Source: Deltaproteobacteria bacterium
GTDB taxonomy: Bacteria > Myxococcota_A > Polyangia > Fen-1088
Direction of reading: 5' to 3'
Assembly: GCA_016935975.1 (NCBI GenBank)
Contig: JAFGPX010000259.1
Coordinates: 11,230 to 75,229 of the forward strand
Length of the DNA: 64,000 nt
Shown here: in pieces, positions 17,855 to 19,303 of the stretch
How positions within the stretch are numbered: the first letter of the stretch is position 1
Layout of the letters: each line of letters opens with the position of its first letter
Program-made: the position numbers and the translations under genes
Notes under the pieces: model-generated
Seen by the model: the letters and a program-made list of their open reading frames with translations, nothing else
What the model was told of the DNA's origin: nothing
The model's database searches: none

Positions 17855-19303
17855 CTACCGCCCTTCGCCCCGGTCTTCGGGGTCGGCACCTTTGCCCCGG
17901 GGAGTGGCCGCATACTCTTCGAGTTTGCGGTAGAGCGTCTTGCGGTCGAGACCCAAACGCTGTGCCGCCCGCGTCTTGTTGCCGCCCTCCACGTCGAGCA
18001 CACGTTCGATGTACTCGCGTTCGAGCTGGTCGAGAGTGAGTCCCTGGGTGACGGCGTTGGCCAGGAGATCTTGACTTTTGCGTTCCTGCATGGCGCGCGG
18101 CAAGTCCTCGGGCCCAACGAGGTCGGTTTCCGTCAGGGCCACCACCCGTTCGACCACGTTCTCGAGCTCGCGCACGTTGCCCGGCCAGTGATAGGAGAGC
18201 AAGAGCTTCTTGGCGCTCTCTTTCCAGCCCTTGACGGTCTTGCCCGAGCGTGCCGCCGCGCGGGCCAGGAAGTGGTCGGCCAGCGGTAGGATGTCTTCTT
18301 GGCGGCCGCGCAAGGGGGGCAGGTGGATTGGGATGACGTTCAGCCGGTAGTAGAGATCCTCCCGGAAGCGACCTTCGCGCAGGGCGCGTTCGAGATCACG
18401 ATTGGTGGCCGCTATCACGCGCACGTCGACGCGTTCGGACCGGTTGGTTCCGAGCGGCCTAATCTCGCCGTCCTGCAGGACGCGCAGGAGCTTGGGCTGC
18501 AGGGGCATGGGTAGTTCCGCGATTTCGTCGAGAAACAGCGTGCCGCCGTTGGCTTCGACGAAGAGCCCCTGCCGGTCGGCATTCGCGGTCGAGTGGGCCC
18601 CGCGCGCATAGCCGAAAAGCTCGCTCTCGAGCAGGTTCTCGGGAATGGCCGCGCAGTTGAGCGCGACGAACGGCCGGCTCTTTCGCGGGCTGCGCGCGTG
18701 CAGGGCGCGCGCCACGAGCTCCTTGCCTGTGCCCGATTCGCCGGTGACAAGCAAGTTGGCGTGCGATGTCGACAGACGTCGCATGAGGGCAAAGATTTCC
18801 TGCATGGCGGCCGAGCGCCCGATGATGCTGTCCAGACGGTCGCGGCGGCTGACTTCCTCGCGCAGGCGGACCACCTCACTGCGCAGAGAGCGTTCGGCGA
18901 GGGCCTTGTCGATGCTGAGCACGAGCTGGTCGATATTGAAGGGCTTGGTGATGTAGTCGTGGGCGCCGAGCTTCACCGCGCGGATCGCCGTATCGATCGA
19001 CCCGAATCCGGTGACGATGATGACGAAGGGCGAAGGCTCGACTTCGCGAATCTCGCGCAGCAGGTCAAGCCCGTCGAGATCGGGCATCTTGACGTCCGAA
19101 ACGACCAGGTCGATGCCGCCCGCTTTCACGCGCTGGACTCCGGCTCGCCCACCCGCAGCGATGTCGACTGCGAAACCCTCGTGCTCCAGCTCTTCTTTCA
19201 CCCAATCGCACATGGCCGCGTCGTCGTCGACCACCAGGATGGAGGTTGGCGGACGACCCGTCTGCGACGGGGAGGTTGCTCTGCTTTCGTCGAGTGAAGC
19301 CAT
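17855..19303 (-). CDS. NtrC-family (bacterial enhancer-binding protein) response regulator with atypical sigma-54 contact motif
   Basis: REC domain (ILVVDDD...[11 protein letters not shown]), AAA+ sigma-54 activation domain (GESGTGKE Walker A, ESELFG...GGTLFLDEI) and C-terminal Fis-type HTH. GAFTGA is replaced by GAHSTA. The track ORF runs to 19747, but its N-terminal 148 aa are R/P/G-rich; the first Met of the REC domain is at 19303. Confidence 0.85.

Follow-up and report, generated by a model that had tools for sequence, protein, structure and literature searches.

Can an activator of the NtrC family go on working with sigma-54 after the Phe that contacts this factor has been exchanged? The question is raised by a gene in a 64,000-nucleotide stretch of DNA from Deltaproteobacteria bacterium (contig JAFGPX010000259.1; hereafter the window; G+C content, ~68%), which encodes a 482-residue regulator on the minus strand. 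The Phe of the GAFTGA motif in loop 1 of bacterial enhancer-binding proteins (bEBPs) is treated as a defining and nearly irreplaceable sigma-54 contact, and genome surveys use it to sort activators from sigma-70 look-alikes; in this regulator, the motif reads GAHSTA. A first-pass annotation, made from the window alone, had noticed the substitution and had proposed, by analogy with Rhodobacter NtrC, that the protein acts independently of sigma-54. The comparisons described below support GAHSTA more strongly than that annotation could know, as a clade-wide, single-origin rewrite under selection. As the best reading, with a probability of about 0.4, we propose that the pore loop has been re-specified, is functional, and continues to act on region I of sigma-54. 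The regulator and its elements are located in the window as follows.

17855–19303, minus strand: NtrC-family response regulator and AAA+ enhancer-binding-protein homologue, 482 aa (open reading frame and Pfam; identical to NCBI MBN2576336.1, P0001)
18911–19240, minus strand: receiver domain, residues 22–131 (PF00072, Response_reg; E-value, 2.5e-30)
18323–18826, minus strand: AAA+ ATPase domain of the sigma-54-interaction type, residues 160–327 (PF00158, Sigma54_activat; E-value, 3.3e-70)
18719–18742, minus strand: Walker A, G188-ESGTGK-E195 (conservation in the clade)
18584–18601, minus strand: loop-1 tip, G235-A-H-S-T-A240 (GAHSTA), at the GAFTGA position (sequence and gap-free alignment with NtrC1)
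18524–18538, minus strand: Walker B, L256-FLDE260 (D259 and E260 invariant)
18446–18478, minus strand: loop-2 region, residues 276–286, starting with L276 (clade comparison)
17912–18037, minus strand: Fis-type HTH_8 DNA-binding domain, residues 423–464 (PF02954; E-value, 1.2e-15)

The overall architecture is that of the group I bEBPs (e.g., NtrC1, ZraR, and LuxO), with which the regulator shares the layout of receiver, AAA+, and HTH_8 domains and all the ATPase, arginine-finger, sensor, and pocket residues. The PF00158 match covers profile positions 1–168 of 168 and contains or is accompanied by the Walker A and B motifs, the switch Asn, sensor I, two arginine fingers, and sensor II; AAA_lid_14 is assigned by Pfam to residues 332–412. 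In the receiver domain, the acidic pocket (D26/D27), the phospho-acceptor D70, T98, and K120, which are the residues of a two-component response regulator, are all intact and invariant in the protein alignment (A2). Judging from these residues, the protein probably functions as a two-component response regulator and has the full AAA+ motor of a bEBP. Many enhancer-binding-protein models of NCBIfam matched it (including NtrC, AtoC, ZraR, GlrR, LuxO, and NtrX), and no equivalog cut-off was reached (score versus cut-off: NtrC (TIGR01818), 458.8 versus 558.6; AtoC, 455.4 versus 714; ZraR, 415.9 versus 760; NtrX, 390.1 versus 600). Because its scores stay under these cut-offs, the regulator is classified as a member of the NtrC family and not as NtrC itself. 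The identical protein MBN2576336.1, from a metagenome-assembled genome (MAG) labelled 'Deltaproteobacteria', is annotated as 'sigma-54-dependent Fis family transcriptional regulator'.

The codons GGG GCC CAC TCG ACC GCG (18584–18601, minus strand) encode GAHSTA as residues 235–240. In a phmmer alignment with Aquifex NtrC1 (1ny5, 4l4u), residues 227–329 of the regulator are aligned with zero gaps; the NtrC1 segment facing the loop is ELFGYEKGAFTGA, and the exchanges from NtrC1 to the regulator are K213 to R234, F216 to H237, T217 to S238, and G218 to T239. The identity of the AAA+ domain to those of group I bEBPs is 48–54%. A structure model of residues 145–400 was generated with AlphaFold2 (AF2) from 117 diverse sequences; an earlier full-length model, which was built on a shallow alignment of sequences >70% identical and reached a predicted local distance difference test score (pLDDT) of ~50 in the AAA+ domain and <50 in loop 1, was discarded. 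The pLDDT of the AAA+ domain in the retained model is 94 and that of the hairpin 231–245 is >90, with H237/S238 predicted midway along the loop that joins short strands at 231–232 and 244–245. The model superposes on NtrC1 (1ny6_A) with template-modelling (TM) scores of 0.92/0.95 and a root-mean-squared deviation of 1.1 Å over 241 columns (Foldseek), and its top 50 structural matches are mostly AAA+ domains of bEBPs, and also include Brucella NtrX. Loop 1 is of canonical length according to both the gap-free alignment and the AF2 hairpin. A shifted register that would restore a functional Phe, which the first-pass annotation had named as an outcome that would refute it, is ruled out: the only aromatic residues near the loop are F230, Y232, and F248, all matched in NtrC1, leaving no spare Phe for the tip, and the sequence and structural superpositions are essentially gap-free. 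An NtrC-like AAA+ domain in which Phe, Thr, and Gly of loop 1 are replaced by His, Ser, and Thr, as that annotation had described it, is thus borne out by Pfam, by the phmmer alignment with NtrC1, and by structural superposition.

Whereas the Phe of group I bEBPs is inserted between residues of sigma-54 region I, His237 occupies this place in the regulator and in 103 of 103 members of its clade, instead of the Phe or Tyr of bEBPs. The expectation that a replacement here should matter agrees with published mutagenesis summaries, which permit only Tyr (PMC2941729, PMC3162934): Tyr is the sole substitute for the Phe in PspF according to work on NorR (PMC2941729), and in the compilation of Francke et al. 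it is validated at position 3, other replacements being inactive (PMC3162934). The next two positions are less restricted. Ser is validated at position 4, and at position 5 Asp is validated and Glu, Ala, His, Asn, and Ser are putative (PMC3162934). Ser238 corresponds to the Ser of the validated activator BkdR; Thr239, a small polar residue at position 5, is absent from the list of Francke et al., GAFTTA and GAFTSA being found in neighbouring families. The basic residue before the motif and the pocket residues are also present (R234, L224, and L284, corresponding to NtrC1 K213, I203, and L263), the roles of K213 as a DNA-backbone contact and of I203/L263 in the pocket having been described for NtrC1 (PMC11839083).

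The rarity of His at motif position 3 is to be read with respect to the 150 nearest cluster representatives and the literature. On clustering at 50% identity, the GAHSTA and GAFTDA proteins collapse to a single representative (P0127, GAFTDA). The 150 nearest representatives at this level carry GAFTGA (74), GAFTDA (31), GSFTGA (24), and GAYTGA (3–4), with one or two each of GSFSGA, GAFSGA, GAFTSA, GAFTTA, GAYSGA, GAYTDA, GAFTGS, GSFTGS, and YAFTNA; one motif is degenerate, and His is absent from position 3 throughout. GAHSTA does not turn up as a bEBP motif in the literature searched, nor does an 'F85H' exchange. GAHS does not occur in the available portion of the Francke et al. supplement, where the three 'GAHT' matches proved not to be variants of the GAFTGA site. 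A 41-aa synthetic GAH profile, submitted to a word-index search that is ill-suited to such a query, gave eight candidates, six within the E-value limit, all of them fragments of 49–69 aa and none with His.

Within its own family, on the other hand, GAHSTA is a common motif. Among the best 120 homologue clusters (72–100% identity), 100 have GAHSTA, one GAHSMA, and 16 GAFTDA; in a census of 179 family members, combining the first homologue search with a second one seeded from the sister group, the numbers are 101 GAHSTA, one GAHSMA, 72 GAFTDA, one GSFTDA, and four unparsed, and intermediates such as GAYTDA or GAHTDA are not found among these 179 (sister-clade query). Every source with a name is an uncultured member of the Polyangia or Myxococcales or a 'delta proteobacterium', known from MAGs and metagenomes. 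In reference genomes, the motif follows the identity to the query, with GAHSTA at 82–87%, GAFTDA at 55–67%, and GAFTGA, GSFTGA, and a few others (GSFTDA, GAFSGA) at ≤50%. A neighbour-joining tree calculated with residues 232–241 masked places 111 of 111 GAHSTA tips in one clade inside a grade of GAFTDA proteins, on a stem of 0.023 substitutions per site. Pairwise identity within the clade goes down to 64% (median, 78%), and some GAHSTA–GAFTDA pairs are 80% identical. Nevertheless, R234-G-A-H-S-T-A240 is unchanged in 103 clade members, in which only 33% of all positions are invariant.

The codons tell the same story from the DNA side. They vary synonymously in the GAHSTA clade (His, CAC/CAT; Ser, TCG/TCC; Thr, ACC/ACG; Gly, GGG/GGC/GGT) and differ from the codon sets of the GAFTDA clade (TTC/TTT, ACC/ACT, and GAC/GAT), so that the exchange of the three adjacent residues between GAFTDA and GAHSTA requires at least five nucleotide changes. 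For three given sites on a stem of 0.023, ~0.07 changes are expected versus three observed, at positions that are normally the slowest of the family; we infer an excess over the stem expectation from this estimate, which is not a formal test. The gene-wide ratio of nonsynonymous to synonymous substitution rates (dN/dS) within the clade is 0.09–0.15 at dS of ~0.6–1.0, a near-saturated range in which the ratios are approximate. The tree, the codons, and these ratios show that the loop was rewritten from GAFTDA to GAHSTA a single time, in an ancestor shared by uncultured soil myxobacteria (Polyangia), and that strict purifying selection has preserved it ever since; GAHSTA is a clade-wide conserved trait, neither decay nor artefact. 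That the gene is decaying, is without function, or owes its motif to sequencing or assembly, as the unusual motif and the missing cognate kinase gene in the window (see below) could have led one to think, is effectively excluded by the low dN/dS, a reading frame left unbroken in over 100 independent assemblies, and the invariance of all catalytic residues.

A stepwise mutational route to GAHSTA through variants reported or predicted to work can be drawn by analogy with known motifs. Phe could have passed to His through Tyr (TTC, TAC, CAC), and GAYTDA, GAYSGA, and GAFTTA exist among the nearest families. The path from Asp through Asn or Ala to Thr would cross residues classed as putatively functional, and the exchange of Thr for Ser is known in a validated activator.

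When 103 GAHSTA proteins are set against 38 with GAFTDA, just four differences (GAHSTA/GAFTDA) are fixed: H237/F, S238/T, T239/D, and D278/E; nearly fixed are A233 (A/T/V), versus Lys, and G279, versus Arg, His, or Lys. All of these positions belong to loop 1, its immediate flank, or the loop-2 base, and thus to the L1/L2 surface, and the rewrite of the tip was accompanied by the changes of K233 to Ala beside loop 1 and of E278 to Asp and R/H279 to Gly at the loop-2 base. Loops 1 and 2 line the pore of the ring and move with the nucleotide cycle. The receiver and HTH domains have zero fixed clade-specific differences at the thresholds used. Across the 103 proteins, Walker A is invariant at G188, S190, G191, T192, K194, and E195 (residue 189 is Glu or Asp, and G193 has one exception), and so are D259/E260 of Walker B, the switch residue Asn216, T300/N301 of sensor I, the arginine fingers R314/R320, R378 of sensor II, R234, L224, and L284. 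Because the loop is of full length and invariant across more than 100 diverged sequences with the ATPase and coupling residues intact, it appears to be still in use; a tip and a full coupling machinery that were frozen after a short burst of change suggest that it probably still serves a particular function.

A specificity switch would also be expected to leave such a pattern, in which neighbouring residues change together on a short stem, become fixed, and are accompanied by changes on the L1/L2 surface alone. It is conceivable, though unlikely, that the loop has been matched to another threaded substrate, either a divergent sigma-54 paralogue or a non-sigma protein, giving these Polyangia a private channel between activator and partner; the motor would then have changed in specificity and kept its mechanism. 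A related, similarly unlikely idea is that His lets sigma-54 be engaged only under certain conditions, of pH or of metal supply for instance. Sigma-54 paralogues that are specific for certain activators exist in Rhodobacter sphaeroides, and the lack of His at position 3 in all 150 nearest representatives would suit a private partner as well. Against it, no candidate partner was seen: in the loci examined there is neither a second rpoN nor a gene that is consistently gained beside GAHSTA.

The closest relatives outside the clade, the GAFTDA orthologues (uncharacterised proteins from MAGs of Polyangia, Kofleriaceae, and Myxococcales), are 55–80% identical to the regulator and have the same HAMP-HisKA kinase partner as its relatives, but differ from it in the tip (F/T/D versus H/S/T), at residue 233 (Lys versus Ala), and at the loop-2 base (E-R/H versus D-G). 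GAFTDA is also the motif of FlgR in Epsilonproteobacteria and of Desulfovibrio DVU2106, the latter being one of the Desulfovibrio bEBPs with assigned target operons (PMC4641369). The GAHSTA loci have two arrangements, one for each of the two sub-clades in the tree. Type A (the window, L001-5, L025, and L031) consists of hyp322, rpsT, holA, a Peripla_BP_6 lipoprotein gene, the regulator, and a 270-aa open reading frame (ORF), beyond which follow a divergent ompA-like gene and exbD genes, with no adjoining kinase. Type B (L081-83) consists of UvrA, a small ORF, a HAMP-HisKA kinase, the regulator, aconitase, two M16 peptidases, and a Ser/Thr kinase. The sister GAFTDA loci share the type-B neighbourhood (identities: UvrA, 78–79%; kinase, 59–61%; aconitase, 72%), and the deeper GAFTDA loci have a homologous kinase, 38–50% identical, directly upstream. 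Because the closest GAFTDA proteins occupy the same locus (UvrA, kinase, regulator, and aconitase), GAHSTA is an in-place rewrite of an orthologous kinase–regulator pair and not a spare paralogue, and the shared locus implies that the same signalling pair persisted through the change of the loop.

The kinase gene precedes the regulator in the type-B loci and in most GAFTDA loci whose upstream region is covered (e.g., L081:6409-9413 and L084:6390-9401). It is absent from the window locus (17855–20169), and the sole kinase-like match of the window, at ~52836–53687, is just 29–32% identical. The gene has been lost from the locus in the sub-clade of the window, as judged from these arrangements, and the regulator is an orphan there, though its phospho-acceptor residues are intact.

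The replacement at the orthologous locus also bears on the idea that the protein is a modulator or competitor, which shares enhancer sites or mixed rings with another bEBP, is unable to remodel the sigma-54 holoenzyme, and serves as a brake controlled by phosphorylation. L1 variants of PspF that keep ATPase activity and yet lose sigma-54 binding are known (PMC3467059, Table 1), and hetero-oligomers of myxobacterial bEBPs are mentioned in a passage of PMC9109919 that cites Volz et al. 2012. The GAHSTA gene, however, replaces the GAFTDA gene at this locus rather than adjoining it, no GAFTDA paralogue is seen on the GAHSTA contigs, and a pure brake leaves the exact invariance of three residues unexplained; we regard this role as improbable, even slightly more so than a change of partner.

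Homologues of bEBPs that have left sigma-54 are well documented. Loop 1 is deleted or shortened in Rhodobacter capsulatus NtrC, Caulobacter NtrC, and NtrX (10.1101/2023.06.06.543975) and in VpsR and YplP, and TyrR, DhaR, and HupR have substitutions or deletions (PMC3162934); Walker B residues, too, are missing from VpsR (PMC6158489), whereas the function of Caulobacter NtrC still requires the residues for ATP binding and hydrolysis (10.1101/2023.06.06.543975). These atypical homologues, which include Myxococcus xanthus HsfA, have an AAA+ domain of the bEBP type without a canonical GAFTGA, and some need phosphorylation and ATP. HsfB is a hybrid kinase, in contrast to the HAMP-HisKA kinase of the regulator's relatives. 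Most members of this class delete or shorten loop 1; in the regulator, nothing is deleted or degenerate.

By analogy with these proteins, the regulator could be a sigma-54-independent activator or repressor at promoters of the sigma-70 type, dependent on ATP and phosphorylation, in which the loop would touch a new partner, such as RNA polymerase. The description of the position-3 Phe as replaceable by Tyr alone speaks for this alternative, as does the precedent of HsfA in the same phylum, and intact ATPase motifs are no bar to it, since Caulobacter NtrC still needs its ATP residues. The analogy with Rhodobacter NtrC drawn in the first-pass annotation holds as far as NtrC-family homology goes and is otherwise imperfect: most of the documented cases have lost or shortened the loop, VpsR being devoid of Walker B residues as well, while here the loop and the coupling residues are invariant. 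A tight rewrite of three residues followed by stasis does not look like drift, and, with no fixed change in the DNA-binding domain, the target promoters would have had to be rewired simultaneously. We therefore place sigma-54 independence second and hold it to be somewhat doubtful.

The failure to find a local −24/−12 promoter has been counted in favour of sigma-54 independence too. The following elements lie upstream of the neighbouring ompA-like gene.

20245–20262, plus strand: TGGCAAGTGGTGATTGCT (TGGCA…TTGCT), the element noticed in the first-pass annotation; GG-to-GC offset of 14 instead of 12, TGGCA half not conserved (alignment A1)
20258–20286, plus strand: TTGCTT (20258–63)-N17-TAGCAT (20281–86), sigma-70-like −35/−10 pair, conserved in four of five loci (A1)
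20317–22701, plus strand: ompA-like protein, 794 aa, with a signal peptide, a long low-complexity segment rich in Pro and Ala (PAPAPAP…), two CarboxypepD_reg domains, and an OmpA domain at the C-terminus

The earlier statement that no convincing −24/−12 promoter precedes this gene stands and can be extended to the whole window and to 33 related loci. In the window, TGGCAC-N5-TTGCW has no match at ≤1 mismatch and 27 at ≤2 mismatches (25.6 expected), and no conserved intergenic −24/−12 site occurs in the 33 loci, including those of GAFTDA proteins. Weighted −24/−12 scoring of the same loci gave recurrent sites only inside coding sequence, and the minimal core GG-N10-GC (1512 matches versus 1536 expected) is uninformative at 68% G+C. 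Because the GAFTDA orthologues are equally without a local sigma-54 promoter, its absence says nothing on the sigma factor used, and sigma-54 targets may sit elsewhere in the genome.

The spacing of TGGCAAGTGGTGATTGCT was correctly judged to be wrong for sigma-54; being 2 nucleotides too long, and with a half-site that is unconserved in the five aligned intergenic regions (A1: window, L002, L003, L004, and L025), the element was rejected as a sigma-54 promoter. It is an unconserved half joined to a conserved sigma-70-like −35 hexamer. The pair TTGCTT-N17-TAGCAT is the same in the window, L003, L004, and L025, L002 having TTGCGC and TACCAT; TAGCAT ends 30 nucleotides before the ATG of the ompA-like gene at 20317, with a GGAG ribosome-binding site in between. 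The pair looks like a sigma-70-type promoter for this gene, although it is weak in comparison with the Escherichia coli consensus and was not picked up by the promoter scan. The ompA-like gene, previously described as adjacent and divergent, is indeed on the opposite strand, but it diverges from the 270-aa ORF that lies between it and the regulator, not from the regulator itself. No link was found between the ompA-like gene, or its promoter-like pair, and the regulator. Two exbD/tolR-like genes (22961–24060, minus strand) adjoin the ompA-like gene.

The results of single-residue mutagenesis and the frozen, full-length loop pull in opposite directions; the sigma-54 reading is ranked first, with a probability of about 0.4, followed in order by sigma-54 independence, the change of partner, the modulator, and decay or artefact. 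Full-length, substituted loops like that of the regulator are found in natural variants that have been judged or predicted to be sigma-54-dependent, namely TouR (GAYTGA), BkdR (GAFSGA), LevR (GSFTGA), and DVUA0100 (GVATGV), none of which has His at position 3. DVUA0100, a Desulfovibrio bEBP without the Phe, is predicted from its regulon to use sigma-54 promoters (PMC4641369). Several observations weigh against continued action on sigma-54. The mutagenesis summaries for PspF and NifA allow only Tyr for Phe (PMC2941729, PMC3162934); extrapolated to the regulator, such single-residue data predict that His abolishes sigma-54 activation, and no experiment backs His. No −24/−12 promoter beyond chance is present in the 64-kb window or the related loci. 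Any other bEBP in the cell would have to work with this region I of sigma-54 as well, which leaves no obvious driver for a retuning of the loop. Finally, neither rpoN nor canonical bEBPs were located in the GAHSTA genomes by the scan of the window and the related loci; no rpoN was found in this DNA, which represents loci and not whole MAGs, and the GAHSTA contigs showed no GAFTDA paralogue.

If the regulator does still act on sigma-54, the mechanism may be pictured as follows. Phosphorylation of Asp70 would lead to assembly of the ring on the binding sites of the Fis-type HTH domain, and ATP hydrolysis would then move the L1/L2 pore loops, which would keep their hold on a peptide drawn into the pore, most likely region I of sigma-54. 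His237 and Ser238, together with the retained L224, L284, and R234, would replace the pocket of Phe and Thr by a more polar grip on the Leu/Gln-rich region I, so that activation through open-complex formation would continue at a sigma-54 promoter in another part of the genome, with altered efficiency or selectivity.

The genes around the regulator in the window are as follows.

19357–20169, minus strand: 270-aa ORF, directly upstream of the regulator with a gap of 53 nucleotides; 79–80% identical in L001-4 and L025
15906–17843, minus strand: Peripla_BP_6 lipoprotein, 645 aa, 11 nucleotides downstream of the regulator; synteny in L001-5, L025, and L031
14876–15892, minus strand: holA, 13 nucleotides after the lipoprotein gene

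The 270-aa ORF has no Pfam or NCBIfam match and comprises a coiled-coil-like N-terminal half, a zinc-ribbon-like CxxC…CxxC, and a C-terminal domain; its C-terminal half is 31% identical (E-value, 1e-17) to a 182-aa ORF upstream of the kinase–regulator pair in the GAFTDA loci L016, L018, and L020. Its position suggests that it is probably the first gene of the regulator's operon, and it may encode a conserved, uncharacterised partner of the two-component system. The regulator, the lipoprotein gene, and holA are likely co-transcribed; because the gaps are only 11 and 13 nucleotides, the gene of a signalling regulator seems to form part of a housekeeping operon (14876–17843, minus strand). The place of the lipoprotein gene presumably corresponds to that of lptE, which precedes holA in E. 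coli. In the deeper GAFTDA loci (L013-L018, L020, L022, L026, and L028), the gene right after the regulator (~9250–11250, plus strand) was considered as a relative of the Peripla_BP_6 protein; this was rejected, as it encodes an atypical kinase of the ABC1/UbiB type (PF03109; E-value, 1e-68 in L018).

In the sister and type-B loci, the regulator is followed by aconitase, directly or past one small ORF. The aconitase gene of the window (30384–33068, minus strand) lies ~11 kb from the regulator and is 77% identical to the regulator-adjacent aconitase of type B, which suggests that a rearrangement split an ancestral kinase–regulator–aconitase block in the lineage of the window. The sister GAFTDA loci have, before aconitase, a membrane-anchored ORF of 218–228 aa, with a C-terminal hydrophobic helix, that overlaps the stop of the regulator (L084:9398-10054; P0103 contig, 9455-10141). 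It has no Pfam match, all GAHSTA loci, the window included, lack a homologue, and its loss coincides with the loop rewrite in the comparison with these two sister loci. A second bEBP, with GSFTGA, is encoded on the same contig as the GAFTDA regulator of L018, ~6 kb downstream (L018:15846, plus-strand frame), so that relatives of the lineage carry ordinary activators of the sigma-54 type.

Database annotation labels the GAHSTA proteins 'sigma-54-dependent' without qualification. The clade is rather a natural experiment, in which an otherwise intact motor with a His-Ser-Thr tip has been kept under strong, long-term selection. If these proteins are still active with sigma-54, the restriction to Phe or Tyr would depend on context, and the grip on region I would tolerate a polar aromatic residue. 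If they are not, the clade would represent a bEBP homologue that re-used loop 1 rather than deleting it, showing that the loop can have other roles.

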